Shown one piece after another: positions 14,622 through 48,062 of a stretch of DNA of 53,584 bases. Under the pieces are notes generated by a model. The model did not search any database. It worked only from the letters and a program-made list of their open reading frames with translations, and was not told where the DNA came from. Position 1 is the first letter of the stretch, and the number at the start of each line of letters is the position of its first letter. Made by a program: the position numbers and the translations under genes. Source of the stretch: Patescibacteria group bacterium (GTDB lineage Bacteria; Patescibacteriota; Patescibacteriia; JAGVFQ01); NCBI GenBank assembly GCA_020057505.1, contig JAGVFQ010000057.1:1-53584 (forward strand), read 5' to 3'.

Positions 14622-14624
14622 ATA

Positions 14625-15056
14625 TTATATATCAAATAATACCTCCGCTACCCATTGCCCTTTTTCTTTTTTAATCACCAAATCATGATAGGTTACCGCC
14701 TTAATTTCCAAAGCAAAACTTTTTACTTTATAACCGCTAACTTCAGCTTCTAAATTTTTATCATCTTGAATTTTAATTTTAAATTCATCAAAAATCGCAT
14801 TATGCAAATCCGCTAAATAATTCAACTGGCTCAAAAAATCCACCAATAGCGCTCCCAAATCCGTCGATTCTATTTTAAATTTTTCTTTAATCCTATTTTT
14901 GCTGTCGTCTGTAGTCTGTAGACTGTCGACCAAATTAAAAAACATCCCCTCTGCCATATTGGCAAAAAGTTCTTCTTTAGTCTTGCCCCGCGCGCGGATC
15001 TTTAAATCAGCCGTGTGTTCAAGAATTTCAAATTTATTTTTTTGTTCTTGTATCAT
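14625..15056 (-). CDS. archease (RtcB activator)
   Basis: 143 aa. EHTADLKIRARG near the N-terminus and KAVTYHDL near the C-terminus. Lies immediately downstream of rtcB. Confidence 0.85.
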   Translation of the reverse strand: MIQEQKNKFEILEHTADLKIRARGKTKEELFANMAEGMFFNLVDSLQTTDDSKNRIKEKFKIESTDLGALLVDFLSQLNYLADLHNAIFDEFKIKIQDDKNLEAEVSGYKVKSFALEIKAVTYHDLVIKKEKGQWVAEVLFDI

Positions 15057-23666: not shown

Positions 23667-23679
23667 GTATCAAAAATTA

Positions 23680-30262: not shown

Positions 30263-30274
30263 AATTAATAAAAA

Positions 30275-30970
30275 TTACTTACTTTTTTTAGTATTTTTAC
30301 TATCTTCCACAATAACGCCATCGCGAATAGTAATAATCCGATCAGCGTGTTCGGCCACTTCCCTTTCATGAGTAATAAGAATAATTGTATGGTGTTGTTC
30401 TTTATTAAGCGCTTCAAAAGTATCGAGAACGATCTCGCCAGTTTTGCTATCAAGATTGCCGGTCGGCTCATCCGCGAGAATCAAAGAAGGATTGTTGACG
30501 AGCGCCCGAGCGATCGCCACGCGCTGCATTTGTCCGCCGGAAAGCTGATTGGTCAAATGATAGAAATGCAATTCATCCAAGCCGGCATTCTTCAAAGATT
30601 CTTTGGCTTTTATCTCGCGATCTTCCTTGCTAACGCCGGCGTAGACTAAAGGCAACATAACATTGCGTAAAACAGTTGATCTTGCGAGCAAATTAAATGA
30701 TTGGAAGACAAAACCGATTTTCTTATTCCTGATATCGGCTAATTCATCATCAGAAAAATCTGAAACATTTTTCCCATCAAGCAAATAACTGCCGCTCGTT
30801 GGCGTATCGAGCGCGCCCAAGATATGCATGAGAGTCGATTTGCCCGACCCAGATGGTCCAATAATGGCCACAAACTCTCCATCATCAATTTTAAAAGACA
30901 ACCCCTTGAGAACCGTCGCCTCGCCCGCGCCGCTCGAATAAGTTTTAGCTATATTTTTACATTCAATCAT
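30275..30970 (-). CDS. ABC transporter ATP-binding protein (MacB/LolD-type)
   Basis: 231 aa. Walker [10 protein letters not shown], signature [15 protein letters not shown], Walker [13 protein letters not shown]. Confidence 0.9.
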
Positions 30971-30991
30971 AGAATATTTTTTCTTTCAAAA

Positions 30992-32920
30992 CTATCTGCC
31001 TTGCGGCCCTCCTCCCATATCAAATAAGGATTTAGACGATGGGCTGGTTCCGCTAGTTGACGAGCTAGACGAACTAGATGAAGTGACGGTTCTCACGATT
31101 ATCTCGTCACCTTCATTAAGGCCTGAAGTAATTTCAGTTGAAGTGTCGTTGGCGATGCCAATCTCCACCTGCTTAGTCTTGGGGGCTTTTTGAAGAGTGG
31201 TACTGCTCGTCCCCGACGTATCGGACGACACCTCTTCATCCGGCATTTCAACATAACTGATATTATTAGAAAATTTAATGGCGGAGCTCGCAACCGTAAT
31301 GACATTCTGTTTCATATCAGTGATAATCGAAGAGGAAACGCTCATACCGGGTTTCACTCGTTCGTCTTGCGTGTCAAAAATTATTTTAACAGTATAAGTA
31401 ACCACGCCCTGGGAAACGGTTCCGAGCGTATCAATTTCCGCCACTTCACCGCTGATAGTCAAACCTTCAACGGCATCAAAAGTCAGGGTAACTTTTTGTC
31501 CAACTTTGACTTTGGCCGCGTCAACTTCATTTAAAGAAATTTCCGCTATGCGTTGTTTGGTTATTAAAGTCGCTATAGCCGCGCCCGAAGACACATCATC
31601 GCCCTTTTTAATATCAATAGCGGCAATAATGCCGTTAAAAGGAGCTTTGATAGTATAATCAGCTAGTGTTTCGCGCGCATCTACAAGAGAATTCTCGCGT
31701 TGCTTTACCGCAAGCTCTTGCGTTTGAATATCAAATTCATCTGCGTCCGCTTTGAGATTAGCGAGAGATAATTCCTTTTCTTTAACCGAGGCCTCGGACG
31801 CCGCCAAATCCAGAGGATTATTTTGTTCCATTTCGGTTAAATCTCTTTTCGCATTAATCAAAGCATCTTGATAATTTTTGATCGCGCCCTCGGCCGCGAG
31901 TAAACTCGAAATATGCCCGTTAGTTTGGCCGATATAGGTGCTAAGCGACGACTGGTAGGTCGTAACTTTGGCCAGAGTCGACCAATGATGATCGGAGCGG
32001 CTGTCCACCCAAGCATCAAACAAATTGCTTTGGCTTTTTGCAGCTTGAGCAATGGCGGTGGTGGTATCTTCGGTTTCTTTTAATAAAGAATCAATTACCG
32101 CTTCGTCGGAATATCTGGTTGCCGTTTTATAATCTTCAAAATTAGCGTCATATTTAGCGCGAGCGATTTTGTAGTCGCTTTGCGCCGTCGCGAGCAGCGC
32201 CTGAATTTTGTCCCGATCGTCAAGATGTGTGGAATTAATAATCGCAGCGCTATTGTCCTGACTGGAACCGAGCGTGACTTCGCTCGCGCCGATTTCATAG
32301 CTATAAAGAATATCATTGAGTTTGGACATCACCGTGGGCAAATCCAAAAAAGTATCGGAGATAGTGTTAAATGAATCGCCATAGGCGGTAGTAATATCTT
32401 CTCCCGCTTTTTCTTCGGCTTCCTCGGCTTTTAGATAATCAGTCGCTTGGGATAATTTGAGTTTTTCCAAACTATTCTTCGCGCTCGCGAGCGAATTCTC
32501 CGATTGCATTATTTCGTATGCCGTAGCCGGCAATTTTATTTTTTCGAGCGACAATTTGGCGCTATCAAGACTCGCCTGAGCGTCACGCACCGTCTTATAT
32601 GCTTCTTTGGCGTTCAATTGCGCAATAATTTCATTAGCTTTGACTTCCTGGCCGTTTTTCACATTGACCGTAAGCGCGGCGCCGGACACTTTTGATGTGA
32701 TATCGACTTGATCTAAAACCGTAATTTGACCGCTGCCGGAAACCGAAGTGATGATTGTACCCCTTTCTACGGCAGCCAAAACATATTTAGTCGCGACTGT
32801 GCTACTGCCAAAAGATTTCACGGCGAAATAACCGCCCAAAAATAATACAATAATCATAACCACGGCGGTAATTTTTCTTTTCCGGATAAATTTAATAATC
32901 TTCTTGATCATATTCATCAT
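30992..32920 (-). CDS. HlyD/MacA-like periplasmic adaptor (membrane fusion) protein with a very long coiled-coil insert
   Basis: 642 aa. N-terminal TM, barrel-sandwich motifs at both ends (VSGSGQITV...; IKAPFNGIIAAIDIKKGD), and a Ser-rich tail. Confidence 0.8.
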   Translation of the reverse strand: MMNMIKKIIKFIRKRKITAVVMIIVLFLGGYFAVKSFGSSTVATKYVLAAVERGTIITSVSGSGQITVLDQVDITSKVSGAALTVNVKNGQEVKANEIIAQLNAKEAYKTVRDAQASLDSAKLSLEKIKLPATAYEIMQSENSLASAKNSLEKLKLSQATDYLKAEEAEEKAGEDITTAYGDSFNTISDTFLDLPTVMSKLNDILYSYEIGASEVTLGSSQDNSAAIINSTHLDDRDKIQALLATAQSDYKIARAKYDANFEDYKTATRYSDEAVIDSLLKETEDTTTAIAQAAKSQSNLFDAWVDSRSDHHWSTLAKVTTYQSSLSTYIGQTNGHISSLLAAEGAIKNYQDALINAKRDLTEMEQNNPLDLAASEASVKEKELSLANLKADADEFDIQTQELAVKQRENSLVDARETLADYTIKAPFNGIIAAIDIKKGDDVSSGAAIATLITKQRIAEISLNEVDAAKVKVGQKVTLTFDAVEGLTISGEVAEIDTLGTVSQGVVTYTVKIIFDTQDERVKPGMSVSSSIITDMKQNVITVASSAIKFSNNISYVEMPDEEVSSDTSGTSSTTLQKAPKTKQVEIGIANDTSTEITSGLNEGDEIIVRTVTSSSSSSSSTSGTSPSSKSLFDMGGGPQGR

Positions 32921-35680: not shown

Positions 35681-36400
35681 TTAAAATCTAATAATTGCCA
35701 AACAGCCGCGAATATTTTCTCGAGCGCGCGTAATTCCAATGTCAGACTGCCCCTCCTCTAGTCGTAGCTCACCATCGCCGCTATTGAAAAACAATCTCAT
35801 TGAATTATCGGTGATGACTTTGCGGACAAATTTTAATCCGTTGCCGCGCTTTTCAGGATCGCGCCCGGAAATGATTTCAGTAAAAGCCATCTCTAGCGCG
35901 TCAAGATGATTTTTGAGTTCGGGCCGGACGCGACTAAGCGTCCCCAAAACTCCCAACCCTCGGTCGGCCAAGACCACCAGCCGCTTATAAAGATCATAGC
36001 CAAAAAATATTCCCGGCGCATCAGGCCATTTACCTAAATTATGATCAAAAGAATTATTTCCAATCTCTCCCGCCACCGCCACGATAAGAGAAACTAATCT
36101 AGAAAACTGCGGCAACTGAAGCAAGTCGTTCTGCAATTTGATAAGCCTGGCTTGAAAAACCGCACTATTAGAGCAATAAAATTCGGCTGGCAGTTCTTGG
36201 CCTTTTCTCGTCCATTCACAGGCAAGCCCAATAAGATCGCTCGCAAAAACTTCTAAATCTTTTTTGGCATAATACCGATGAACACCGCCAGCTTTTCTAA
36301 TCGCGACTAACTTTTCGCTCTTATCCCAGCGGCGCAAGGTGTCAATAGAAACCTCTAAAAATTTAGCGGCTTCGCTTATACTTAATAACTTTTCTTCCAT
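35681..36400 (-). CDS. MerR-type HTH fused to a GHKL (RsbW/histidine-kinase-like) ATPase domain
   Basis: 239 aa. N-terminal LSISEAAKFLEVSIDTLRRWDK. GHKL N-box EIGNNSFDHN, G1 DRGLGV, G2 GNGLKFV. Confidence 0.6.
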   Translation of the reverse strand: MEEKLLSISEAAKFLEVSIDTLRRWDKSEKLVAIRKAGGVHRYYAKKDLEVFASDLIGLACEWTRKGQELPAEFYCSNSAVFQARLIKLQNDLLQLPQFSRLVSLIVAVAGEIGNNSFDHNLGKWPDAPGIFFGYDLYKRLVVLADRGLGVLGTLSRVRPELKNHLDALEMAFTEIISGRDPEKRGNGLKFVRKVITDNSMRLFFNSGDGELRLEEGQSDIGITRARENIRGCLAIIRF

Positions 36401-36453: not shown

Positions 36454-36987
36454 ATGCAAAATTATATCAAACTAGGGAAAAATAAGTTAAAACTATTTAA
36501 CAAAGTCCAGACCATGCTCAACGGAAACTTTATACCGAAGACGGAAAGCAAGGAATTCGCCTTCACTAAGCTTATCAGGTGCGGCTACTGCGGATCAGGC
36601 ATATCAGCCGATGAAAAATTCAAAAAACTCAAAGATGGTGGCACGAATCGCCACGTCTATTACTTTTGCACTAAAGCTAGAAATATCGATTGCAGCAATT
36701 CCCCTATCAATGAGCCAAGTCTGATTAATGAACTAGCTGAGTTGATGGACAAAGTAAATTTGGACGAACTTGAAGTGCGAGACCGAATTGAAAATGAGAT
36801 CGCGAGATTTAATAAGTTCAGAGCCGGCGTGCTGGGCTACAAGCAAGAAAAGAAAGCGATTGATATAGATGTGAGGAATTATGCCAAATACTTACTCAAA
36901 GAAGGAACCATTATGGAGAAACGAGAATTATTATCATGTCTTCAGAGTAAGTTATTCTTGAAAGATAGAAAGATTACACTGGAGTAA
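36454..36987 (+). pseudogene. C-terminal fragment of a large serine recombinase (zinc-ribbon plus coiled-coil only)
   Basis: 177 aa. FTKLIRCGYCGSGISADEKF...HVYYFC is the recombinase zinc beta-ribbon. The resolvase catalytic domain and the recombinase domain are missing. Confidence 0.65.
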
Positions 36988-36990
36988 AAA

Positions 36991-37013
36991 AATCGCCGAG
37001 AAGATCGGCGATT
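36991..37013. terminator. bidirectional hairpin terminator
   Basis: AATCGCCGA-gaaga-TCGGCGATT flanked by an A-run and T residues. Confidence 0.65.
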
Positions 37014-37062
37014 TAGTGATGTGAATATAATTTTTAATTTTACGGGTTAGTTTTTTAAGTAA

Positions 37063-37362
37063 CTAATCGCCAATCAATCTTATATAGGTATGTTGTTCGA
37101 TTTGCTTCATAAATTCAATTATATCTTTTATTTCCGATTCTAGACTCTTGTTTAGCCTAGCAAGTTCTTCTAACTCATTTATAACGTGAGGAACCTGATA
37201 AAGATTGAACATTGTCAAACCATAAGGATCAATACTCCAAAGCCATGGAAATTTTTCTTTGCTATCGTTTGGTAATTCCTTAATAATTTCAGCTAAATTA
37301 ATTTCTATTTTTCTTATCAATCCCCCGCCCTCTCCCTCCAATCGAATTCCGATGTGTTGCAT
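37063..37362 (-). CDS. putative immunity protein for orphan toxin 4
   Basis: 99-aa ORF 26 nt downstream of the orphan Rhs-CT. Assigned by position only. Confidence 0.45.
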   Translation of the reverse strand: MQHIGIRLEGEGGGLIRKIEINLAEIIKELPNDSKEKFPWLWSIDPYGLTMFNLYQVPHVINELEELARLNKSLESEIKDIIEFMKQIEQHTYIRLIGD

Positions 37363-37388
37363 ATTGTTTTTAAATTAAATAATTATTT

Positions 37389-38765
37389 TCATGGAAATGT
37401 AGTAACTAAATCTCCTAACTTATTAGTTACAACTGTATAAATCGAAGTAAAAGATTGGGAATTTCGATCCCAACCAATTGCCTTACCAGCATCAATAGTC
37501 CTAATAAAATTTCCATTACTTTGTAAGGTCGTTGCCGCATTTTTAGCCTGCTCAAGCAAATTTGGTATATCTTTAAAATTCATAAAGAAACTCTTATTTT
37601 CTTGTAGAGTTATAGAACTATCCAAGGAATGGTACTTCTGAATGTGCAACATCCCTTTTGAAGTTATATTTATTATAGAATTTGCAGCTTTCTGAATTTT
37701 ATCTTCCTGAGTTGCAGCCACTGTACCTCCGGCAGTCGTTACGGTCGCAGCTGCACCGCCGCACAATATTCCACAAGTAATACTTCCGCCAGCTGCTACA
37801 ACGCCTCCAGCTACAAGCGCTCCTCCGACTACGCCCATTACCGCTCCAGTCTGGTATGGATGATCCATAGCATATCGAGCAACAGAGTTATTGTCATACA
37901 AATTATTAGCCCAATTACCAAGTTTAATCGTATTTCTTTCACTAATAATATATTCCACCCATTCACCATTAGAATCAATAGCTATCAGCGGATTATTCTT
38001 CACATAGCTATAGCTGTTTAAATTTTGCGGATCAGATAAATATTGCTGTAATTCTTGGTCGGTAATCTGCTTTATCTTATTTTTATCCCCCACCGCCAAA
38101 TACGCCGGATCCTCACTCACAAACCTGCCAATTTTCCCATTGTAATATCTCGCCCCGTAATAGTACAAATTCGTTTCCTCATCCAATTCCTTGCCAGTAT
38201 ATTTGTGGTTAGCTTCGTAGCTAGAAGTCTTCTCATCCAACCTCACCGAACCAAAAGGATAATAATCCAAGGATTCAACAATCTGTCCGGTTGTATTGGT
38301 TTCGATCGAGGAACTGCCGAGTTGATCAGAATGGTTGTAATAGATAGTACCATTTTTAATCGTGGCAATATTCGTATCGCCAAGATAGATGCGATCGCGG
38401 AAAATACCATTTTCTTTCTCGGTATATTGATTGGGATAATATGTTTTAATGGTTGAGCTAGCAGCGACTGCCTTTAAAATCCTCTGACCATTTTCATCGT
38501 AGGTATAATTCACTGACTTGCCTGTTTTAATCGATCTCAAAAGCTGATTCTTGTAATTCCAGGAATAATTAAAAATACTATCCGAAATTAGATTGCCTGA
38601 ATTGTCATAGCCAAAAACTTGCGCGCCAGCTTTAGTCACCGCATCAGGGTTGGCGTAAGTCGCGGCCCAAGTGAGAGAGCTGCTGCCATCATAAATATAT
38701 TTACCCACGTCAGATTTGTTTAAGATATTACCAAGAGCGTCGTAGGAATATGATTTCACTATCAA
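37389..38765 (-). CDS. orphan Rhs fragment: ~270 aa of C-terminal core plus unrelated toxin tip (CT4)
   Basis: Nearly collinear with aa ~1510-1780 of the full-length protein (SYDALGNILNKSDVGKY ... LYYYGARYYNGKIGRFVS ... NNPLIAIDSNGEW), then divergent. Starts with TTG 2 nt after the upstream stop, and there is no ATG. Confidence 0.85.
   Translation of the reverse strand: MIVKSYSYDALGNILNKSDVGKYIYDGSSSLTWAATYANPDAVTKAGAQVFGYDNSGNLISDSIFNYSWNYKNQLLRSIKTGKSVNYTYDENGQRILKAVAASSTIKTYYPNQYTEKENGIFRDRIYLGDTNIATIKNGTIYYNHSDQLGSSSIETNTTGQIVESLDYYPFGSVRLDEKTSSYEANHKYTGKELDEETNLYYYGARYYNGKIGRFVSEDPAYLAVGDKNKIKQITDQELQQYLSDPQNLNSYSYVKNNPLIAIDSNGEWVEYIISERNTIKLGNWANNLYDNNSVARYAMDHPYQTGAVMGVVGGALVAGGVVAAGGSITCGILCGGAAATVTTAGGTVAATQEDKIQKAANSIINITSKGMLHIQKYHSLDSSITLQENKSFFMNFKDIPNLLEQAKNAATTLQSNGNFIRTIDAGKAIGWDRNSQSFTSIYTVVTNKLGDLVTTFP
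38094..38335 (-). repeat. Rhs core-end homology block, copy in orphan 4
   Basis: Near-identical DNA to 42331-42570, 39811-40055 and 41158-41340. Homology to the main gene continues up to about 38750. Confidence 0.85.
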
Positions 38766-38767
38766 AA

Positions 38768-39136
38768 TTAAATATATTTTTCTGCTTCATTAAACGCCCA
38801 TAAGGCCTTACCTTTTAAAAGTTGCCGCGAAACTTCTATTGCCTTATATGACTCAGCCAAGGTTTCAAATATATCTATAATTATAAGATCTGTGGTATCT
38901 TTATCGTTTTTTTGTTCATTAAATTGTTCATTAAGGAATAAATAAAATTTTTGAATTACTTTATCATTGATTGGATAATTTTCAACTCTTTCTTTTAAAA
39001 ATCGGCCAAAAACACCCAACAACATTTTTTTTTCACTAACATCTGTAATATCAAACACGTTATAGTCCCCGTATTGCTTAAATTCTGGTATCAGCTTAAC
39101 TATTTCATCAATAATATTATCTAAAGTTATTTTCAT
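38768..39136 (-). CDS. putative immunity protein for orphan toxin 3
   Basis: 122 aa. Its start overlaps the stop of the upstream toxin ORF by 4 nt. Confidence 0.5.
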   Translation of the reverse strand: MKITLDNIIDEIVKLIPEFKQYGDYNVFDITDVSEKKMLLGVFGRFLKERVENYPINDKVIQKFYLFLNEQFNEQKNDKDTTDLIIIDIFETLAESYKAIEVSRQLLKGKALWAFNEAEKYI

Positions 39137-40176
39137 TTAATAGCACCTCCCTTCAAAGCATCTTTAATACTATCTGCCAACCATTCAGCTTTTTGTCTGT
39201 CATTATTAGACAAACTATTTTTCAATAATTTGTTTAAACCATTAGAAATTTCTTTAATTTTTATTGCATGATCAGTTCCACCAACTAATTCACCAGTTTT
39301 TGCTGTATACTTAAATGCATCTATAGCTCCACCATCACCAATAATATTTCCAGATTTATGTTGTTTAAAAAGATCCTTTATATAATTAATCAATTTGGGA
39401 TTCTCAACTCCTTGCAATAAATTATCTCTTCTAGTTCCTAATAATTTCGATGCCGATGCTCCAACGCCTTTTGTTAATTTTTCTGCATCACCTGCCTTAT
39501 CAGCAACTCTTGCAACTCTCGCCACAGCGCCCAATCCGACTACGCCGGGGATAGCCGCGCTTCCAACATCTAGACCCAGACTAGCTGCTTCGCCTTTTGT
39601 GTCTCCTCCAGTAAAAATAGATTGCCCTAATTTGTATAAATCATATCCAATAAATCCCGCATCTACAACAATATCAAACCACTTTCCTTTTTCATCGACA
39701 TATTTTAGCGGATTATTAATCGTATATGAATACGAATTAAGGTTTTGGGAATTTTGGAGATATTTATCTAATCTTAATCCTGTTTCTTCTTCAAGTCTTT
39801 TATTATCCCCCACCGCCAAATACGCCGGATCCTCGCTCACAAACCTTCCAATCTTTCCATTGTAGTATCTCGCTCCATAATAATACAAATTCGTTTCCTC
39901 ATCCAATTCCTTACTGGTATATTTATGATTATCCTCATAACTTGAAGTCTTCTCATCCAATCTCACTGATCCAAAGGGATAATAATCCAAGGACTCAACA
40001 ATCTGCCCGGCTGCGTTGGTTTCAATTGAGGAACTGCCGAGCTGATCAGCGTGGTTGAATATAGTACTATTTATACTGTTAATAGCGAAGACAGAAGAAA
40101 AAGGAGAAAATAAAAATAATAAAAACAGTAATAGAGCTACTGCTTTTATGAAAAAGGTTTTAGTGGGCAGAATCAT
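39133..40176 (-). CDS. orphan Rhs core-end plus toxin tip (CT3) with its own ATG and signal-peptide-like N-terminus
   Basis: MILPTKTFFIKAVALLLFLLFLFSPFSSVFA is joined directly to HADQLGSSSIETNAAGQIVESLDYYPFG ... NNPLKYVDEKGKW, followed by a unique 190-aa tip. Confidence 0.8.
   Translation of the reverse strand: MILPTKTFFIKAVALLLFLLFLFSPFSSVFAINSINSTIFNHADQLGSSSIETNAAGQIVESLDYYPFGSVRLDEKTSSYEDNHKYTSKELDEETNLYYYGARYYNGKIGRFVSEDPAYLAVGDNKRLEEETGLRLDKYLQNSQNLNSYSYTINNPLKYVDEKGKWFDIVVDAGFIGYDLYKLGQSIFTGGDTKGEAASLGLDVGSAAIPGVVGLGAVARVARVADKAGDAEKLTKGVGASASKLLGTRRDNLLQGVENPKLINYIKDLFKQHKSGNIIGDGGAIDAFKYTAKTGELVGGTDHAIKIKEISNGLNKLLKNSLSNNDRQKAEWLADSIKDALKGGAIK
39811..40055 (-). repeat. Rhs core-end homology block, copy in orphan 3
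   Basis: See 38094-38335. Confidence 0.85.
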
Positions 40177-40186
40177 TTTACAACAG

Positions 40187-40462
40187 TTAACGATATTCTT
40201 CGGGAATATTTTTAAGTTGCTCTTCTAGAGACCAATTTTCGGTTTTATATTCTGGGTCATGCCACTTAGCTCCTGATTCTATCCATTTTTTACGCCAACT
40301 TTTAACACCTTCTAATGTTGCGTCGCCATACCCAAATTCAACTCCGCAACAAAAACAAAAATCATAGGTTGGCGATTCTCCATCTTCTCCCCATGGAAAA
40401 TACTCTTCTGAATATAATCCACATACTCTACAAATTTTTAATTTATTTTTTGAGTTGTTCAT
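40187..40462 (-). CDS. putative immunity protein for orphan toxin 2 (Cys-rich, CPCC-like)
   Basis: 91 aa. CRVCG ... CFCCGVEFGYGD. Overlaps the toxin ORF's 3' end by 20 nt. Confidence 0.5.
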   Translation of the reverse strand: MNNSKNKLKICRVCGLYSEEYFPWGEDGESPTYDFCFCCGVEFGYGDATLEGVKSWRKKWIESGAKWHDPEYKTENWSLEEQLKNIPEEYR

Positions 40463-41306
40463 AATAATATTCTAAATTAGTTTTATAACCATGTATAGAT
40501 GGATCCGGTTTGAACATTGTTTTAGGAACTTCATTTTTATCCATTATACCTAATATGTTATTTTTTACATCATAGATTAGCTTATCACCATTTTTCCTAA
40601 AACCACTTAACACATCTGCGGAATAATTTTTAAAGAAATTATAGGTGCCTTCAACATATTCTTTAGCGTTTCTAAACTGAGAAAAATCACTTTTATGATT
40701 ATTCCAATGCTCGAAAGCATTTTTAATTGAATCCCCATACCGCCCTAAACTCCATATTGGTTTGGAAGCATCCCTAACCGAATCTCCAATTTTAACTATT
40801 TTCCCTGCTGGTGGTATTTCACCCGCGGTAACTACTCCGATTGCCGCCATGCCATAATTATTATTTTGCGCGTCTTGTCCGGCTTGCACTAAGCTATACT
40901 GTCCGATAGGGGTAGTAAGAGACTGAAAGAAGGAATTAATTTGTGGGGTATATATTGCAAAGGTTATAAATACTACAGCTGCTACTGCTTGCAGAAAATT
41001 CCCATCGGGATCGCGGTATAATAATGGGTTATTTCTTGCGTATATATAATAATTCAATAATTGTGGATCAAGTAATAACTGTCGTAATTCAAGTTTAGTC
41101 AACTCTCTAAGTTTGGTACTATCCCCTATCGCAAGAGATGTTGGATCTTGTGATATAAACCTGCCAATCTTCCCATTGTAATATCTCGCTCCATAATAAT
41201 ACAAATTCGTTTCCTCATCTAATTCCTTACCCGTATACTTATGGTTATCCTCATAACCTGAAGTCTTCTCATCCAATCTCACTGATCCAAAGGGATAATA
41301 ATCCAA
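40443..41306 (-). CDS. orphan Rhs core-end plus toxin tip (CT2)
   Basis: DYYPFGSVRLDEKTSGYEDNHKYTGKELDEETNLYYYGARYYNGKIGRFIS ... NNPLLYRDPDGNF. Has a TTG start. Homology to the main gene extends upstream to the stop of the preceding immunity ORF (41338-41340). Confidence 0.8.
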   Translation of the reverse strand: MDYYPFGSVRLDEKTSGYEDNHKYTGKELDEETNLYYYGARYYNGKIGRFISQDPTSLAIGDSTKLRELTKLELRQLLLDPQLLNYYIYARNNPLLYRDPDGNFLQAVAAVVFITFAIYTPQINSFFQSLTTPIGQYSLVQAGQDAQNNNYGMAAIGVVTAGEIPPAGKIVKIGDSVRDASKPIWSLGRYGDSIKNAFEHWNNHKSDFSQFRNAKEYVEGTYNFFKNYSADVLSGFRKNGDKLIYDVKNNILGIMDKNEVPKTMFKPDPSIHGYKTNLEYYYEQLKK

Positions 41307-41340
41307 AGATTCGACGATCTGCCCGGTCGCGTTGGTTTCA
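41158..41340 (-). repeat. Rhs core-end homology block, copy in orphan 2
   Basis: See 38094-38335. Confidence 0.85.
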
Positions 41341-41658
41341 ATTATGAAACTTTTCTAGTCTATCTATTAATAATTTTACATCTTCTCTATCAATATTATC
41401 ATACAAAGCCTCTAAATCTATATTCTCGAAATAAAGCAATTCCAGGGCGTTAATAATAATTCCTAAATCATTTAGATCGATCTCTCGATTATTTTTTTCC
41501 AATTTATCATCAACATTTTTATACTCTAGAGAAGAGTATAATATTTTAATTTTATCTGGCCTATATGGATAACCCCAAGCATCGATTAGGCTTCTTCTAA
41601 TAATATAACTTTCATCTTTTGACAATCCCTTAATATAATCATCTTTCAATTCAATCAT
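41338..41658 (-). CDS. putative cognate immunity protein of the full-length Rhs toxin
   Basis: 106 aa. Its start overlaps the rhs stop by 4 nt. Confidence 0.55.
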   Translation of the reverse strand: MIELKDDYIKGLSKDESYIIRRSLIDAWGYPYRPDKIKILYSSLEYKNVDDKLEKNNREIDLNDLGIIINALELLYFENIDLEALYDNIDREDVKLLIDRLEKFHN

Positions 41659-44600
41659 TTTAATACACCCCCTCTCTCAATATCCTTTTTTATTGATTCA
41701 TCTAAATAATTTATGCCTTTATCTGGCTGAAATATTGTTGGTTGTTTTGGATTATCAATAAATAAATCATTGGTTTTTGAGTTATAGTAATATGTTTTAG
41801 AAACTTTTCCGCCAATTTCAATTTTTATATCCGCATTAACTCTAGTTTGTTTTACTAAATCTTCGAGTTGAGATTTTGATAAATTAGGATAATGTTTTTG
41901 AGCATGTTCAACTGCTCTTAAATCATTATTTTTATTAAATTTAGTCTTCGACATCAGCATTTCCCCCGTCGACATCGTCGCGCCAGCTACTCCAGCCTCA
42001 ATCCCCATCACCCCAACCGCTAAATCATTCATATCATTGCCGGTTTTGTAATCGCCTTTTGAATATGAATAAACTGATCCGCCCATTAATGGTGCGCTAA
42101 TAGCCAGAGTTGCGGCTGCAGAAAAAGTAACCACGGCCGGCACCCACACTGGCGCATAAACCGCGACATAAACAGCAATTGGAATTAAAAAAGCAAAATT
42201 ACCAGTCTTGTCTATATAGATTAATGGATTGTTCGTGGCGTACGAATAACTATTTTGCGCCTGAGGATTTGAAAGATAGGTTTTTAAATCCAAACCAGTC
42301 TTGCTCTTTAATTGGCCTGCATTTCCTACCGCCGAATACGCCGGATCAACACTCACAAACCTGCCAATCTTCCCATTGTAATACCTCGCCCCGTAATAAT
42401 ACAAATTCGTCTCTTCATCCAATTCCTTGCCCGTGTATTTGTGGTTATCTTCGTAAGTTGAAGTCTTCTCGTCTAATCTCACTGATCCAAAAGGATAATA
42501 ATCCAAAGATTCGACAATCTGTCCGGCTGCGTTGGTTTCAATTGAGGAACTGCCAAGCTGATCGGAATGGCTGTAATAGATGACATTGTTTTTAATCGTG
42601 GCAATATTTGTATCGCCAAGATAGATTCGATCGCGGGAAATACCATTTTCTTTTTCGGTATATTGATTGGGATAATACGTTTTAATAGTTGAACCAACAG
42701 TGACTGATTTTAAAATCCTCTGACCATTTTCATCATAAGCGTAGCTCACTGCCTTACCTATTTTATTTGAACTCAAAAGCTCGTTCTTGTAATTCCAAGA
42801 GTAATTAAAGATACCATCTGAAATTAGATTGCCCGAATTGTCATAGCCAAAGACTTGCGCGCCAGCTTTAGTCACTGCATCAGGATTGGTATAAGTTGCA
42901 GCCCAAGTCGCCGAGCTGCTGCCGTCATAAACATATTTACCCACGTCGGACTTGTTTAAAATATTACCCAAAGCATCGTAACTGTAGGCTTGCGTGTAGT
43001 TTTTGCCGTTCGCCGCAAAGGTGATAGTCGCCTTAGTCAAACGATAAAGATCATCGTAAGTATAATCTGCTTCTTTGGCGAGATTCCCGGCCGACTTGTC
43101 GGAGATATGCGTGACATTGCCGACAGCGTCATAAGTATAGGTAAGATCTTGAATTTTTACGCTGTTTGCTCCAGTAGATTTGTTAATGAGTCGATACATC
43201 TGATTGCGGTCATAAATATTCGTGGTAATGGCGCCATTCCCCATTTCAATCCTCTTGATTTGGCCATTGACCTCATAATCAACTGACTTCAAAATATCAA
43301 CGTTGGTAACCGGGTTCGCAATCTTTTCAATCTGGCCGGCATTATTCAAAACATATTTGATTTGGGAATTATCGGGATATTTGATTGAAACTAGATTATT
43401 TAAGCTGTCGTAGGAATAGGTTGTGGTGAAAGTCTGGCCGTAGCTTAAAGGACTGGACACGGACTTATCAGTCTTGAAGACTTCTTTTAACTTTCGGCCG
43501 GCGATGTCATAGGTATAGTTCTTTTCATAGGTGGAGTTTGAAGCCTTAGTTAATCGCCCGATGCCATTAATACCGGCATCATAAACATAGGTCAGTTGTC
43601 TAGTTAAAGTATTATCCGCGTTCACAATATTCTCTGAAGTCAGCCGATCGAGAACATCGTAAGTGTATCTGACTTTGAGACCGCGAGGATCAATTGTCTG
43701 TGTTAGATTATTATTCTTGTCGTAGCTCTTAGTTCCGACGCCGAAAGTCAGATCCGCTGGATTGTGCAGATCCTCTTCTCTGGTTTTCCGACCGAGGAGA
43801 TCGTAAGAGAACTTGCGGATATTGCCTCGGGCATCAGTAATCTTAGTGAGATAGTTTAATTGGTTGTAAATATATGCTGTGTTTTTCGCCACGCCAGCCA
43901 AGAATTCCGTCACTTTGATGAGATTGTTTCTCGCATCGAAGTAGAAAATCTTTTGTTTGGCATTGGGATCAGTGATCGTCTTATTCCACTGATCATAACT
44001 AAAGCTTGTGCTGCCTAAACTATTTGATATTTTGGTCACGCGTCCGAGCGCATCATAAGCATAAGTATTATTAGGGTCATTTTGATCAATTGATTCAAAA
44101 TCAAGCGTTAAAGAAAACTCGGGCAGGAATTCTTTAGCTAAAAATCCACGCTCATTGTAGCTTAGATTGTTGGCGACAAAGAGTCCATTCTCGGCTTTGG
44201 CTTTAGTTTGAATCGTTCGACCCAGACCGTCAACATATGTTTTCTTGGTGATTTCAATCAACTGACCGTTGTTGTCATTTTGATTAGGGTAAAATTTTTC
44301 CGTAACGCTCGTAGGAAAATTAATATCATTGTATTCATATCTTTTGGTTTCAATCAATTGGGCAGTATTGCTTGGATTGGTGATTAATTCTTTAACCGGC
44401 CGATTGAGAGCATCATAGACTTTTTGAGTTTTAAAATTGTTGGGATCAATTATCTCTATTGGTTCGCCCGTGAAGTAATCGTAAGTAGAAGTTGTGATTT
44501 GATTTTTAGGGTTCACGATTTGGGCGGGATAGAGATTGTAGGCATCGTAGCTAACGCTCGTTTTAAACCCGCGCGGATTGGTAGAGCTTATGGGCAAGCC

Positions 44601-47537
44601 AAAGCTATTATACTCAGTCCGGCTGTAGGTAAAATCAGCATTGGGATTAATTAATTTCTTTTCGAGAGTTAAATTGCCTTTTTCTACAAGACCCCAATTC
44701 AAGGTGTCATAATAATACTCGCTTTGGCCAAGGACATTACCGCCTTGGCCGTAGCTCGTCTGTCTTTTGGGCAGAGTGAGAATATTTTTGTTTGAGTTTA
44801 AGGCGTATTCGATGTTAGTGCTGATTTTGTCCGTGCCCGTATCAGCGAAACTGCCATCATCATTGGCCGCTACCTCGCCATATTGAGCTTCGCTCGTAAC
44901 ATTGCCGTTCGCGTCGTCATAGACTGTAAGCGAAGCCTTATCTCTATGATCAGCGTTGCCATCATAGGCCATTTCAATGGTTTGGGTTTGTTTTACAAAA
45001 TCTCGGAAGCCGGGCAAGGCGGCGTCTTCCCATTTGTTAATATTAACTTGATACAATTTATCTAAAGCATCATATAATTCTTGGCGATAGACTTTATTGA
45101 CTTTGGAAATATGATCGCTCGTTTCGCCTTTGGCGGTGTCGCTACTATTGCCTTGATAATAATAGCTGATAGTCTTATTGCCGTCGCTGTCAGTCTCTGT
45201 GATAGTATGGAAACCCGTGAATTGTCGATCTAAATAGCCTAGAGAATAATATTCGCCCCCGGCATATTCATAGTTTAGAATAGAGAGATTATTAAAACCA
45301 TCATTAGTTTCGATTTTCTTTACGGTTTGTAAATTAAAAGGCAGTTTGGGATTTAGGATATTACTTGAGGCATCGAAATAATTAGCCGAACTCTGATAGT
45401 TGATTTTAGTTTTAGCGCCCAGGCGGTCATCAACTTCATTCATTAGATCCGGGACAATGCCTTGGTGAAGATAGACTTCGTTGCGGCCCTGGTAGCTGTT
45501 GGAGTACAAGACATCAAAAAGACCATCGCCGTTGATATCTTCAATCGCGGCGCCGTAGTTAATGCCATTTTGCGTGAGATAATTAACGGGAATTATCCAG
45601 GCCGGATCAAGAGTCCAGCCCAAGCCGGTATTAATGTAGACGCCATTGTATTGCAGATCGCTTGAAGCGTCTTTGCGCAGGAGATCAATGAGACCATCGC
45701 CATTCGCATCGGCAAACATCACGCCGGTATCATTGGCATTGCCGTTCGTAAATTTAAGCGGGATGGTCCAATTTGGGTCTTCGCTAAAACCATGGCCGGT
45801 ATTGAGATAGACTTTGTTGGGTGAGGTATTTTTAGCCGAGAGAATATCAATTAGACCGTCGTTATTCACATCCGCTAATCTCGCGCCCAGGTCGGCTGAG
45901 GAACCGATGAAATATATCGGGATAATCCAGCTAAAATCTTTAAACCAGCCCGTGCCGGTATTGATATAGACTTCTTTCCTCTGCCAGTATTCATTGGCGA
46001 AGACGATATCAATCCGGCCGTCACCGTTCAGATCAGTTAATCGCGCGCCGTAATTAATGCCATTTTGAGTGAGATCAATCGGCAGATTCCAATTCGGATC
46101 TTTGGCCCAGCCAGAACCAGTATTAATGTAGACGCCGTTAAACTGCGTATCATTTGAAGCGTCCTTACGCAGGAGGTCAACTAAACCGTCGCCGTTCACG
46201 TCGGCGAACATCACGCCGTTGTCATTGGCGTTGGCGTTCGCAAATTTCACGGGAATGTACCAATTTGGATCTTCCTTAAAACCGTTGCCGGTGTTTAGAT
46301 ATACTTTATTGGGAAAGGAATAATATGCCAAGAGAACGTCGGGCAGGCTATCGCCGTTCACATCAATCATTCTTGAACCCGTATCATGAGAACTTGAAGT
46401 GCCAAAAGAGGCCGGCAAGCTGAGACTCGCGTCTTTCACCCATTGTTTGCTTGATGGCGCGTAGCTGAATTTTGTCTCAGGGAGAGTAATAACGTTGTTA
46501 GAACTGTCTTGGCCTGATTCAGTGATTGACTGAAGCACTAATCGATTTGTATTAGTGCCGGAAGAATAGGCCAAGCTGTATTTTTTCGACCATTGGCCAT
46601 TAATTTTGACCACGATTTCTTTGATACGATAATTAGTTTCTGTTTTGAAGCCGGAGTTGTAGGAAACATTTTTGTCATTTCTAGCTTCGGACGTAAACTC
46701 TATTTCGAAAATTCCAGAGATAGCGCCATTGCCGGTGTAATATATCTTTTGCGGGTAGATCTGACCCGCATCTTTTATATATTCAAATTTAATCCAGTTG
46801 TCATTAAGATCTCGCATTTCTTCAAGCTGCCACTTATATATTCGATTGCTATCGACTGGATCATCTTGACGAGAATTGGCGGTGAGACCGAATTTGTATT
46901 GTGTACCCTTTTTGTCGGTCACGAGCCAGGAGTTGTCGTTCTGGAATTCATATTTTAAAAATTCGCCGTTATCAACTTTGGAACCGTAGAGGCCGTGGAT
47001 ATCATCGCTCAAACTGATTGATTTTAATTCACCGCTTAAAGAAGAAGTAAAATAGTTTTCGGTGTAGAGTTTGTCGCTGCCCAGTTTGTTTTGTCTTTCA
47101 ATCGAGGGAATACTCACTGACCAGCCGTAACCGAAAATATTGTCATTGTTTTTGGTTTGGCTATTGTAGGTTAAACTTAAAACCGGCCCGAAAGAATTAC
47201 GGCCGGCTGGAATTGAAATGGGATAATTGTAATTAAGAGCGCCGCTCATCTTGTCAGCTTCGATCTTGATTCCAGACTTAGTAGAATTTACATCTTGATC
47301 CGTCTGGCTAGGCGTTGGCGAAGCTGAGGCGGCGGCTTCGGGCGTGGCGCTCGCAGCGGGAGCGACGGCATTTTCATCAGTTGAGACGGCCACGGTTTCA
47401 GCTGTTGCCGTTATGGATTCAGTCGGGACGTTCGCGGTTTCCGCGGCGTAAATTACAGAAGGTAAAATTAACTCAAAAGAAAGAGAGAATATGAGGAGGA
47501 GAATTACTACTTGATTCAATTTTGGTTTCTTGACCAT
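41655..47537 (-). CDS. Rhs/YD-repeat polymorphic toxin with a TcB-like N-terminal half (SpvB-like motif plus FG-GAP propeller) and a C-terminal toxin tip (CT1)
   Basis: 1960 aa with a Sec-type signal peptide. SpvB/TcB motif SGALNYNYPISIPAGRNSFGPVLSLTYNS ... FGYGWSVSIPSIER. Six DxNGDGxxD FG-GAP/VCBS repeats. Many YD repeats (YDALGR, YDLLGR, YDVLDR). Core end is LYYYGARYYNGKIGRFVSVDP ... NNPLIYIDKTGNF, followed by a 179-aa unique tip. Confidence 0.95.
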   Translation of the reverse strand: MVKKPKLNQVVILLLIFSLSFELILPSVIYAAETANVPTESITATAETVAVSTDENAVAPAASATPEAAASASPTPSQTDQDVNSTKSGIKIEADKMSGALNYNYPISIPAGRNSFGPVLSLTYNSQTKNNDNIFGYGWSVSIPSIERQNKLGSDKLYTENYFTSSLSGELKSISLSDDIHGLYGSKVDNGEFLKYEFQNDNSWLVTDKKGTQYKFGLTANSRQDDPVDSNRIYKWQLEEMRDLNDNWIKFEYIKDAGQIYPQKIYYTGNGAISGIFEIEFTSEARNDKNVSYNSGFKTETNYRIKEIVVKINGQWSKKYSLAYSSGTNTNRLVLQSITESGQDSSNNVITLPETKFSYAPSSKQWVKDASLSLPASFGTSSSHDTGSRMIDVNGDSLPDVLLAYYSFPNKVYLNTGNGFKEDPNWYIPVKFANANANDNGVMFADVNGDGLVDLLRKDASNDTQFNGVYINTGSGWAKDPNWNLPIDLTQNGINYGARLTDLNGDGRIDIVFANEYWQRKEVYINTGTGWFKDFSWIIPIYFIGSSADLGARLADVNNDGLIDILSAKNTSPNKVYLNTGHGFSEDPNWTIPLKFTNGNANDTGVMFADANGDGLIDLLRKDASSDLQYNGVYINTGLGWTLDPAWIIPVNYLTQNGINYGAAIEDINGDGLFDVLYSNSYQGRNEVYLHQGIVPDLMNEVDDRLGAKTKINYQSSANYFDASSNILNPKLPFNLQTVKKIETNDGFNNLSILNYEYAGGEYYSLGYLDRQFTGFHTITETDSDGNKTISYYYQGNSSDTAKGETSDHISKVNKVYRQELYDALDKLYQVNINKWEDAALPGFRDFVKQTQTIEMAYDGNADHRDKASLTVYDDANGNVTSEAQYGEVAANDDGSFADTGTDKISTNIEYALNSNKNILTLPKRQTSYGQGGNVLGQSEYYYDTLNWGLVEKGNLTLEKKLINPNADFTYSRTEYNSFGLPISSTNPRGFKTSVSYDAYNLYPAQIVNPKNQITTSTYDYFTGEPIEIIDPNNFKTQKVYDALNRPVKELITNPSNTAQLIETKRYEYNDINFPTSVTEKFYPNQNDNNGQLIEITKKTYVDGLGRTIQTKAKAENGLFVANNLSYNERGFLAKEFLPEFSLTLDFESIDQNDPNNTYAYDALGRVTKISNSLGSTSFSYDQWNKTITDPNAKQKIFYFDARNNLIKVTEFLAGVAKNTAYIYNQLNYLTKITDARGNIRKFSYDLLGRKTREEDLHNPADLTFGVGTKSYDKNNNLTQTIDPRGLKVRYTYDVLDRLTSENIVNADNTLTRQLTYVYDAGINGIGRLTKASNSTYEKNYTYDIAGRKLKEVFKTDKSVSSPLSYGQTFTTTYSYDSLNNLVSIKYPDNSQIKYVLNNAGQIEKIANPVTNVDILKSVDYEVNGQIKRIEMGNGAITTNIYDRNQMYRLINKSTGANSVKIQDLTYTYDAVGNVTHISDKSAGNLAKEADYTYDDLYRLTKATITFAANGKNYTQAYSYDALGNILNKSDVGKYVYDGSSSATWAATYTNPDAVTKAGAQVFGYDNSGNLISDGIFNYSWNYKNELLSSNKIGKAVSYAYDENGQRILKSVTVGSTIKTYYPNQYTEKENGISRDRIYLGDTNIATIKNNVIYYSHSDQLGSSSIETNAAGQIVESLDYYPFGSVRLDEKTSTYEDNHKYTGKELDEETNLYYYGARYYNGKIGRFVSVDPAYSAVGNAGQLKSKTGLDLKTYLSNPQAQNSYSYATNNPLIYIDKTGNFAFLIPIAVYVAVYAPVWVPAVVTFSAAATLAISAPLMGGSVYSYSKGDYKTGNDMNDLAVGVMGIEAGVAGATMSTGEMLMSKTKFNKNNDLRAVEHAQKHYPNLSKSQLEDLVKQTRVNADIKIEIGGKVSKTYYYNSKTNDLFIDNPKQPTIFQPDKGINYLDESIKKDIERGGVLK
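42331..42570 (-). repeat. Rhs core-end homology block, master copy in the full-length gene
   Basis: See 38094-38335. Confidence 0.85.
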
Positions 47538-47565
47538 GAAATCAGGATTATTTGATGATATGTGT

Positions 47566-47607
47566 ATTTTAATTCAAAATTGGATGCGACGCAAATATAT
47601 GCGACGC
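47566..47607 (-). promoter_or_regulatory. candidate rhs promoter (TTGCGT - 17 nt - TAAAAT) overlapped by two direct GCGTCGCAT 9-mers
   Basis: The minus strand reads GCGTCGCATatatttGCGTCGCATccaattttgaatTAAAAT. The second 9-mer overlaps the -35 box. Confidence 0.4.
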
Positions 47608-47616
47608 GTCCTAGAC

Positions 47617-47903
47617 ACCTGACTTAGCATAGGATACCTGCGGGACTTCGACTCGAACGCGTCCCGGTCGCCCTAGAGCCGTTCGAGTCCAGGACACGCG
47701 AAGCATCATGGACTCGAACTTTTTGCCAAAAATAGTCGGGGCGTCTCGGTCACCTGACTTAGCATAGGATACCTGCGAGACTTCGACTCGAACGCGTCCT
47801 GGTCGCCCTAGAGCCGTTCGAGTCCATGACACGCGAAGCATCATGGACTCGAACTTTTTGCCAAAAATAGTCGGGGTGTCTCGGTCACCTGACTTAGCAT
47901 AAG
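47617..47903. repeat. 135-bp tandem repeat, 2 full units plus a 17-bp partial unit abutting tRNA-Gln
   Basis: Units 47617-47751 and 47752-47886 differ at 4 positions. The third unit start (ACCTGACTTAGCATA) is the 3' flank of tRNA-Gln. Confidence 0.9.
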
Positions 47904-47907
47904 CCTA

Positions 47908-47978
47908 CTGCCAGACCTGGATTCGAACCAGGATAGTCGCCTTCAAAGGGCGATGTCCTACCGTTAGACGATCTGGCA
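47908..47978 (-). tRNA. tRNA-Gln (anticodon UUG)
   Basis: Hand-folded cloverleaf. Acceptor UGCCAGA/UCUGGCA with the U1-A72 pair typical of bacterial tRNA-Gln. D stem GUCU/GGAC. Anticodon arm UCGCC-CUUUGAA-GGCGA. T arm CCUGG-UUCGAAU-CCAGG. No encoded CCA. Confidence 0.9.
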
Positions 47979-47989
47979 ATACAAAACGA

Positions 47990-48062
47990 GATAACAGATA
48001 TCAAATAATAGATAATAGTTTCTAACTTTCTATTATCTATTCGCTATCTAATATCTGTTATC
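47990..48062. repeat. nested AT-rich inverted repeat
   Basis: GATAACAGATAT...AATAGATAATAG...CTATTATCTATT...ATATCTGTTATC, between the ftsX stop and the tRNA-Gln 5' end. Confidence 0.7.

Follow-up and report, generated by a model that had tools for sequence, protein, structure and literature searches.

Contig JAGVFQ010000057.1 of a Patescibacteria group bacterium was analysed over its whole length of 53,584 nucleotides, hereafter the window. Its largest gene encodes an Rhs protein of 1960 amino acids, and the 5 kb behind this gene hold small open reading frames (ORFs) and three orphan cassettes that repeat the end of the Rhs core. A reading from the sequence alone (the original prediction) had described the protein as resembling, in a single chain with a Sec signal, the B and C components of ABC toxin complexes (Tc), and had left its delivery as an open question. 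In this study, we examine the architecture and predicted fold of the protein, the array behind it and the family to which it belongs, and weigh what the system may do. The features of the locus, from its upstream edge, are as follows.

47907..47979, minus strand: tRNA-Gln(UUG), directly upstream of the Rhs gene and the upstream edge of the locus (95.8% nucleotide identity in the syntenic relative L001)
41655..47537, minus strand: full-length, intact Rhs gene, 1960 amino acids, ATG start (ORF and translation)
47445..47537, minus strand: signal-peptide-like N-terminus, residues 1-31, predicted cleavage between IYA and AE (sequence and relatives)
47253..47444, minus strand: low-complexity linker rich in Ala, Pro, Thr, Ser and Glu, residues 32-95 (sequence)
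46761..47249, minus strand: SpvB/TcB N-terminal domain, residues 97-259 by Pfam (the SpvB N-domain 6p0x also matches the model)
45468..46385, minus strand: FG-GAP (integrin-like) beta-propeller of six blades, residues ~385-690 (motifs, Pfam, model)
42501..45545, minus strand: TcdB_midN region and RHS/YD-repeat shell, residues ~665-1679 (Pfam, NCBIfam, PDB sequence matches, model)
42201..42500, minus strand: Rhs-associated core, residues 1680-1779, in which D1731 and D1776 are the predicted residues of an aspartyl autoprotease (NCBIfam, alignments)
41952..42200, minus strand: hydrophobic, glycine-rich "pre-toxin" module, residues 1780-1862, predicted long helices (tip searches, model)
41655..41951, minus strand: putative soluble toxin tip, residues 1863-1960, alpha/beta, resembling a CdiA-CT (8EY4) and colicin D (model)
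41338..41658, minus strand: candidate cognate immunity ORF, 106 amino acids, overlapping the toxin stop codon by 4 nucleotides (53%-identical ORF in the metagenomic array L082)
40443..41306, minus strand: orphan cassette 1, 287 amino acids, Rhs core end with pre-toxin module and a tip homologous to CdiA-CT 8EY4
40187..40462, minus strand: putative immunity ORF of orphan 1, 91 amino acids, Cys-rich (position only)
39133..40176, minus strand: orphan cassette 2, 347 amino acids, pre-toxin module and tip after about 130 residues of core
38768..39136, minus strand: putative immunity ORF of orphan 2, 122 amino acids, overlapping the orphan stop codon by 4 nucleotides (position only)
37389..38765, minus strand: orphan cassette 3, 458 amino acids, matching residues 1516-1907 of the main protein at 61% identity
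37063..37362, minus strand: putative immunity ORF of orphan 3, 99 amino acids (62% identity to a 101-residue ORF behind a relative's Rhs gene)
36990..37014, minus strand: terminator-like hairpin, 10-bp stem followed by a T-run, at the array end (consensus scan only)
36454..36987, plus strand: remnant of a large serine recombinase, 177 amino acids (97% identical to the C-terminus of an intact 443-residue gene in L001)

The domain profiles of the 1960-residue protein follow the layout that had been proposed for it. Pfam matched SpvB (residues 97-259, E 1.5e-16), FG-GAP_3 (E 1.7e-26), TcdB_toxin_midN (residues 665-790, E 4.3e-15) and RHS_repeat (E 5e-38), and NCBIfam matched Rhs_assc_core TIGR03696 (residues 1680-1779, E 7.5e-18); of the domains that the original prediction had named, only TcdB_toxin_midC was without a Pfam match in the protein. 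Both of its TcB-type signatures, GALNYNYPISIPAGRNSFGPVLSLTYNS and FGYGWSVSIPSIER, were found in the translation, as were six DxNGDxxxD motifs that agree in number with the six propeller blades of the model described below. The protein begins with MVKKPKLNQ (including KKPK), followed by 20 hydrophobic residues and then by IYA and AE, which on inspection has the form of a Sec signal. After it come some 60 residues rich in Ala, Pro, Thr and Ser, and this low-complexity linker is all that separates the predicted signal from the SpvB domain; Pfam found no wall-binding or wall-anchoring domain in the protein. We infer that the N-terminus is a Sec-like, probably cleaved signal peptide, as had been proposed, and a signal-like hydrophobic N-terminus recurs in 107 of 118 relatives.

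Comparison with known structures further defined the two halves of the protein. In sequence searches of the PDB, the C-terminal half matched TcdB2-TccC3 (E 1e-30) and TccC2, residues ~333-787 matched TcdB1 (3e-12) and YenB (1e-10), and the Rhs effector Tse5 was also among the matches to the shell. An AlphaFold model of residues 90-1200, built with an alignment of 40 family members, had a mean predicted local distance difference test score (pLDDT) of 90.4 and a predicted template modelling score (pTM) of 0.88. Searched against the PDB with Foldseek, the best 13 matches of this model were all TcB chains (E 1.5e-56 to 5e-49), those of TcdB1, TcdB2 and YenB, with template modelling (TM) scores of 0.74-0.81; TcdB1 6L7I_F came first (E 1.5e-56, TM 0.80). 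After the TcB chains the scores fell sharply to 0.11-0.26, a range that holds the Rhs cores of type VI secretion (T6SS; 0.15-0.21), teneurins, a bacterial teneurin-like protein and mosquito SGS1. Because TcB chains alone lead the list and the scores then drop so sharply, the N-terminal half appears to be specifically TcB-like rather than merely Rhs-like, and the N-terminal ~1100 residues are predicted to fold as a TcB subunit, with SpvB domain, six-bladed propeller and half shell. The FG-GAP propeller of the model corresponds to the TcB "gate" propeller.

The C-terminal part, judging from its sequence, is the TcC/Rhs YD shell and ends in the conserved core with the motif PxxxxDxxG. The core end aligns with TccC3 (YYYGARYYNGKIGRFVSVD(1731)PA against YYYGYRYYQPWIGRWLSSDPA), and the aligned stretch runs through GRFVSVD(1731)PA, which contains the first catalytic aspartate. 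Further on, P1771-x4-D1776-x2-G1779 stays the same in all 27 relatives that were aligned. It is an instance of PxxxxDxxG, which was shown by Song et al. (2021; PMC7861908) to be necessary for autocleavage of TcC. The reading of the protein as a single-chain BC cocoon with a TcB layout in front and a TcC/Rhs-type shell with a variable tip behind, which the original prediction had drawn from motifs, is thus supported by profiles, PDB sequence matches, the TcB-like model and the TcC-like core, and the tips of relatives are indeed variable. Relative to the BC subcomplexes of Photorhabdus and Yersinia (TcdB2-TccC3, TcdB1-TccC2, YenB-YenC; PDB 4O9X, 6L7I, 4IGL), the protein has the same predicted TcB fold in its N-terminal half, shares the TcC shell and core sequence in its C-terminal half, first catalytic aspartate included, and presumably encapsulates an autocleaved tip in the same way. 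Its shell is smaller, with 1690 residues in one chain, about 460 fewer than the ~2150 of the BC subcomplex. Unlike the latter, the Rhs protein begins with a Sec-like signal and is accompanied by an immunity gene and by orphan cassettes, and no TcA was found for it; the tips of its family are of antibacterial type, whereas those of the BC subcomplex are directed at eukaryotes.

The last 181 residues of the protein found matches in only 25 of 1.84 billion cluster representatives, and these fall into two sets, one confined to residues 1783-1862 and the other to residues ~1865-1960, which implies that the main tip consists of two modules. CdiA-CTs are organised as such two-part tips, with an entry module and a toxin. 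The first module, which we call the pre-toxin module, is hydrophobic and glycine-rich (NFAFLIPIAVYVAVYAPVWVPAVV..., GVMGIEAGVAGATMSTG) and predicted to form long helices. In the model of the second, soluble module (pLDDT ~96), two helices precede a sheet of four strands, and a further helix forms the C-terminus. Its best structural match by Foldseek was the CdiA-CT 8EY4_A of E. coli O32:H37 (probability 1.0, E 2e-3, 26% identity), and the tRNase domain of colicin D (1TFK/1TFO) was matched with a probability of 0.87-0.89. The model suggests that the main soluble tip may be a BECR-type RNase, and its relatives conserve H-x3-(K/R)-x-H-Y, DIK and T-x-F-x-P positions. For orphan 1, sequence comparison identifies the tip unambiguously as a homologue of 8EY4_A (phmmer E 1.1e-17, 80 of 88 residues covered); PDB sequence relatives were not found for the tips of orphans 2 and 3, and a literature search found no paper that cites 8EY4 or gives its activity. 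The orphan 1 tip relates the array to CdiA-CT toxins by homology, and the main tip may do so by its modelled fold, with Rhs rather than CdiA as the carrier; searches of the PDB gave no relatives of the immunity ORFs.

Pairing of toxin and immunity could be followed in an unrelated metagenomic orphan array (L082). There, a tip with 77% identity to the main soluble domain stands behind a pre-toxin module unlike that of the main tip, and it is followed, again with a 4-nucleotide overlap, by a 112-residue ORF that is 53% identical (E 3e-40) to the 106-residue ORF of the window. Since the same tip and ORF occur together behind a different module, the ORF tracks the soluble domain, as cognate immunity would, and the hydrophobic module seems to have no need of immunity of its own. 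Other cassettes of the L082 array encode Tox-REase-7 and Ntox28 with a CdiI_3 immunity gene, and a cassette adjoining another relative encodes a barnase-type ribonuclease with Barstar.

Over the core end, the three orphans are 86-88% identical to the main gene in nucleotides, and beyond it they diverge completely. The orphan and immunity cassettes (37000..42000) have a G+C content of 33-36%, compared with 41-45% in the main Rhs gene (42000..48000) and ~40% in the remaining window, which is consistent with import. In orphan 2, an ATG of its own and a signal-like N-terminus are joined to the last ~130 residues of the Rhs core, and a "mini-Rhs" of the same kind, with a start codon and a signal-peptide-like N-terminus, lies at 2836..3984 of L082; such orphans might be exported and processed independently. 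The recombinase remnant at the array end has lost its catalytic resolvase domain. The original prediction had recognised the Rhs cocoon, a reading that stands, but had left the immunity ORF and the three orphan cassettes unconnected to the gene.

The history of the array becomes visible next to the closest relative found, P0002, a protein 84% identical to that of the window and encoded on a 187-kb Joint Genome Institute contig (L001). This contig is syntenic, with Sua5, DivIC, PpiC, DPBB, FtsE, FtsX, tRNA-Gln, the Rhs gene and small ORFs, and then the recombinase, which is intact there (443 residues, 17302-18633). The main tip of P0002 is the tip of orphan 3 in the window (72% amino acid and 85.5% nucleotide identity), and the P0002 gene is followed by the 101-residue ORF that is 62% identical to the 99-residue ORF behind orphan 3. 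At the core end, the window has ~4.6 kb of additional tip and immunity cassettes relative to L001. The orphan 3 tip ends the main gene in P0002, and together with the additional cassettes this indicates that a former tip was pushed downstream in the window. The comparison is, at the level of sequence, direct evidence of tip replacement.

The family is large and centred on Patescibacteria, also known as the candidate phyla radiation (CPR). A word-indexed protein search, in which candidates were scored, returned at least 875 proteins at E <= 1e-10. The best 120 of these all have SpvB, FG-GAP and RHS domains and most have a TEN_YD-shell domain; they are 1880-3000 residues long, and those that are named are almost all from Patescibacteria. 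Their C-terminal Pfam families are diverse, with accessions that we take to stand for nucleases, EndoU, barnase, HNH, VanY/M15 and CHAP, and the longer relatives also carry LamG, CBM, PKD and Ig-like modules. The species genomes of GTDB, when scanned, yielded 80 loci, in Parcu-, Gracili-, Sacchari-, Wolfe-, Uhr-, Doudna-, Peregrini-, Nomura-, Falkow-, Adler-, Kaiser- and Sungbacteria and in Microgenomates. Chromosome-scale contigs with relatives measure 0.9-1.24 Mb and thus represent small genomes, and the description of the host as monoderm and possibly episymbiotic is reasonable for a CPR bacterium. The RarA protein encoded in the window has relatives at 68-76% identity, and those among them that are named all come from Patescibacteria. 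Single cases outside CPR, 30-41% identical, were seen in Candidatus Methanoperedens (L013), where an IS66 transposase adjoins the family gene, and in a metagenome-assembled genome of Hyphomicrobiaceae (L078); horizontal transfer or binning contamination may account for both. Some third-party annotation records of relatives carry a Gammaproteobacteria label. One Doudnabacteria locus (L044) holds full-length members in tandem (9701-16966 and 17874-24326), the second 34-35% identical to the window protein. In the literature on Rhs toxins of CPR, all that we found was a single sentence, on one such toxin that has an immunity gene beside it in the genome of a soil Saccharibacteria.

Across the family, tips are 130-231 residues long (median 191), and additional core ends, one to four in number, lie downstream in 23 of 70 related loci. 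When tips were compared in pairs, 134 pairs shared only the first 85 residues, 80 shared only the remainder and 34 shared both. The largest cluster of pre-toxin modules, with 19 members, is combined with 11 different soluble-tip families, whereas tip N-parts that are not hydrophobic each occur always with one tip family; the four tips of the window have pre-toxin modules of four different families. By these sequence comparisons, recurrent hydrophobic pre-toxin modules are evidently shuffled independently of soluble tips.

In the window and in the flanks of related loci, we found no candidate for a conventional delivery partner. No ORF of the window matched a TcA, VgrG, PAAR, LXG or WXG Pfam family, in agreement with the original prediction, and the ORFs other than the Rhs gene all have 642 residues or fewer. 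Within the Rhs protein itself, Pfam matched no PAAR/prePAAR and no LXG/WXG. The flanks of the 80 related loci (+/-10 kb) likewise contain no TcA-like gene, and no gene of a T6SS or T7SS was seen next to these loci. Their other genes of more than 1500 residues are a tandem Rhs paralogue and one for an FN3-repeat surface protein, and the remaining large genes encode a helicase, UvrA, LeuRS, the IS66 transposase and an InlB-repeat protein. In four CPR loci, the gene directly upstream of that for the Rhs protein has the same orientation and encodes a secreted protein of 1200-1400 residues (L010 4376-7987, L014 5270-9493, L016 3035-6571, L041 4596-8276). These proteins are 27-33% identical to one another and share an N-terminal element, GDLIK..TVYY..DG.RY.FPNE.TY.SW. 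We rejected them as an A-like partner, as they occur in 4-5 of the 80 loci, are absent from the window and have no Pfam or TcA match.

Among described systems, the locus belongs to the TcdB/TcaC polymorphic toxins and not to the ABC (Tc) toxins. Zhang et al. (2012, Biol Direct 7:18, PMC3482391, Table 1) defined the TcdB/TcaC class by a signal peptide, SpvB, an integrin-like beta-propeller and RHS, and every defining feature is found at the Rhs locus, including the variable C-terminal toxin, the immunity gene and the standalone cassettes. The phyletic list given for the class in 2012 does not include Patescibacteria (PMC3482391), and the tips and immunity ORFs of the window match none of the Pfam toxin and immunity families. 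With the Tc complex, the Rhs protein shares the TcB and TcC shell halves and the aspartyl autoprotease motif. Of the other traits of that complex, a TcA partner was found neither in the window nor in the flanks of the 80 loci. The predicted signal peptide, the immunity gene and the antibacterial tip types of the family differ from a complex that has neither signal peptide nor immunity gene and whose cargo is directed at eukaryotes. Tc toxins have no predicted immunity proteins according to Song et al. (PMC7861908), and PMC10847048 describes release of the Y. entomophaga Tc toxin through lysis that depends on a type X secretion system (T10SS).

Other Rhs systems resemble the protein in part. 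WapA of Bacillus subtilis and Streptococcus suis, a precedent for Sec-dependent export (PMC4436062, PMC12704120), shares the signal peptide, Sec export, the Rhs shell and a polymorphic tip with immunity, and likewise operates with neither T6SS nor type VII secretion system (T7SS); its tip is a tRNase in B. subtilis and has a "PreT-CT" arrangement in S. suis. WapA differs in its cell-wall-binding or sortase-linked N-terminal regions and in the lack of an SpvB/TcB half with FG-GAP propeller. Bacterial teneurin-like proteins (TLPs; Raoelijaona et al. 2026, PDB 9IFO/9PT5, PMC13018210) are YD-shell polymorphic toxins with Sec signals, immunity genes and "no obvious delivery machinery", and thus pose the same question as the Rhs protein. 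Their shell is closed by an FN-plug and NHL propeller, whereas that of the Rhs protein would be closed by a TcB-type half with FG-GAP propeller; the model of residues 90-1200 scores a TM of only 0.11 against 9IFO, and the sequence match lies in the YD shell and core only. TLPs have been reported from six other phyla, Patescibacteria not among them. The T6SS Rhs effectors (RhsA 7Q97, Tse5 8CP6, RhsP 8H8A, Tse15 8UXT) share the YD shell, core autoproteolysis, tips, immunity and orphans (PMC4436062). Their PAAR, VgrG and prePAAR are absent from the Rhs locus, which has a TcB-type N-terminal closure and presumably Sec export instead. No T6SS genes and no Eag chaperone were found in the window, and Pfam detected no T7SS Esx genes and no LXG/WXG100 helical domain in the Rhs protein or the window.

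Taken together, we consider the protein to be a secreted TcB-TcC-type antibacterial polymorphic toxin of Patescibacteria, with a probability of roughly three in four. The immunity ORF and the three orphan cassettes are what point to an antibacterial polymorphic toxin and away from an insecticidal toxin of the Tc type. Several points weigh against this reading. Export, autoproteolysis, encapsulation, toxicity and immunity are all functions that we infer. Pfam, even at E <= 5, gave no credible match for the four tips and the four small ORFs. The fold match of the main soluble tip to 8EY4_A is modest (TM 0.55 normalised to the target) and its profile gave only chance-level matches to PDB sequences; with a modest fold match and neither Pfam nor PDB-profile support, RNase activity is only a lead. 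A promoter scan of the locus did not rise above shuffled expectation, and a search of sequencing runs found the locus in one DNA run, an aquatic metagenome, and in zero RNA runs. The window is a whole contig, and another part of the genome may encode a partner. It is TcA that opens the gate in the TcB propeller of real Tc toxins, and we know of no trigger of the gate that acts independently of TcA.

A mechanism can be drawn from these parts. The Rhs protein would cross the membrane unfolded through Sec and lose its signal peptide, and the shell would then fold outside the cell around its own C-terminal tip. The core aspartates D1731 and D1776 would cleave the tip free within the shell, which would keep the membrane-active hydrophobic pre-toxin module soluble. 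Contact with a target cell would open the propeller "gate" without TcA, and the pre-toxin module would insert into the target membrane and bring the RNase-like domain into the cytoplasm, where it would cleave RNA. Sibling cells would be shielded by the immunity protein, and new tips would be installed through recombination of the conserved core end with orphan cassettes. The specific steps of self-delivery are tentative, and we regard them as more doubtful than credible. In particular, that a TcB-type gated cocoon works without TcA, with contact to a surface component of the target cell opening the gate and the pre-toxin helices serving as its own translocon, seems unlikely to us. If it were true, this CPR-wide family would be a self-contained, Sec-exported injector made of a single polypeptide, might represent the ancestral state behind the three-component Tc toxins, and would serve ultra-small, episymbiotic bacteria as a main weapon.

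The interactions of Patescibacteria with hosts and rivals are poorly understood, and to our knowledge T6SS and T7SS, the secretion systems commonly used on contact, are missing from these bacteria. The present reading assigns a probable function to the largest gene of the window, accounts for the 5 kb behind it, and suggests that the TcB-TcC-fusion Rhs family is a widespread and actively diversifying antibacterial weapon across Patescibacteria. The architecture has been catalogued since 2012, so this specific gene will not surprise specialists; the value lies in a worked example of tip displacement, in the CPR-wide distribution and in the lead on delivery that the pre-toxin modules provide. 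Delivery, which the original prediction had called an open question, still is one, but it is not new, as it also applies to the TcdB/TcaC class of 2012, WapA and TLPs. The family may serve the question that it shares with WapA and teneurin-like proteins, that is, by what means a cocoon of the Rhs type lets go of its cargo and delivers it when there is no injector. Two leads stand out, namely the tightly bounded size of the tips and the exchange of hydrophobic pre-toxin modules independently of the toxins and apparently with no immunity of their own.

The alternative that survives best keeps the same molecule and changes its target: the toxin would act mainly on the host bacterium, in parasitism or predation, and not on rival CPR cells, with immunity serving only against self-intoxication. 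Host cells do supply resources to Patescibacteria (PMC13622651), some relatives have peptidoglycan-hydrolase tips (VanY, M15, CHAP), and the main and orphan 1 tips resemble toxins of Proteobacteria. Orphan arrays and tip replacement between relatives that are 84% identical are nonetheless the hallmark of kin conflict (PMC3482391, PMC4436062), and the present data identify no host; we hold a mainly host-directed toxin to be possible, with the odds against it.

Less probable still, the protein could be a surface adhesin or cell-cell recognition protein for episymbiosis, akin to teneurins, whose tip is vestigial or has a signalling role. The integrin-like propeller and the LamG, CBM, PKD and Ig-like modules of longer relatives fit an adhesin, CPR cells are required to attach to their hosts, and the TLP paper leaves open a role in cell-cell communication (PMC13018210). 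Against an adhesin stand the invariant autoproteolysis motif and the hypervariable tips, which include known toxin families and come with immunity genes; displaced tips and orphan cassettes, moreover, bear the mark of selection for toxicity. The two roles, to adhere and to deliver a toxin, do not exclude each other.

We give equally little credence to the hydrophobic module being the toxin itself, a pore former like the C-terminal domain of Tse5, with the soluble domain as an accessory. The C-terminal domain of Tse5 forms membrane pores, the shell matched Tse5 in the PDB sequence searches, and the long, hydrophobic, glycine-rich helices would suit such a role. The L082 array argues otherwise, since tip and immunity are kept there while the module differs, so that the immunity ORF goes with the soluble domain. 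One module family also pairs with up to 11 unrelated soluble tips, which fits a generic delivery module better than a toxin that needs its own immunity.

That the protein is instead the BC part of a true Tc toxin, with a TcA encoded elsewhere that docks on the propeller and injects the tip into protists or invertebrates, is very improbable. In its favour, the predicted structure of the N-terminal half is that of a TcB, with the propeller to which TcA binds in Tc toxins; bacteria that encode Tc toxins are known to have natural fusions of tcB and tcC (PMC7861908), and the window covers only one contig of the genome. Against it stand the signal-like N-terminus of nearly all relatives, where the Y. 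entomophaga Tc toxin is released by lysis, the cognate immunity gene and orphan cassettes at the locus, the antibacterial type of the family's tips with their Barstar and CdiI immunity, and the small genomes of the group. Nor was a TcA Pfam family or a gene of TcA size found in the window or, apart from the tandem paralogue and the FN3 surface protein, in the flanks of the 80 loci.

Apart from the Rhs locus, a few features of the window deserve mention. A 77-residue ORF between tRNA-Gln and the Rhs gene (47611..47844) is probably no gene; it lies within a promoter/leader region conserved with L001 and has no credible Pfam match at E <= 5. On the island's edge, just past the remnant of the recombinase, a 239-residue protein (35681..36400, minus strand) has a MerR/HTH_17 N-terminal domain and some 180 further residues without assignment. 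A MacB-type ATP-binding cassette exporter (29045..32920, minus strand) comprises an ATPase (30275..30970), a permease (29045..30262) and a 642-residue HlyD-like adaptor (30992..32920). It lies 9 kb from the Rhs array and is not linked to the Rhs gene in L001, and such components of tripartite type are curious in a presumably single-membrane organism. Two adjoining ORFs of 308 and 545 residues at 10416..13019 (minus strand) have no Pfam match at E <= 0.001. The remaining window is that of an ordinary small-genome chromosome, with PolX, PFK, TruB and the MacB/HlyD system, and with the RNA ligase RtcB (E 9e-174) next to archease, its activator, at 13170..15056 (minus strand); this RNA-repair pair could in principle counter RNase toxins of the kind predicted for the array.

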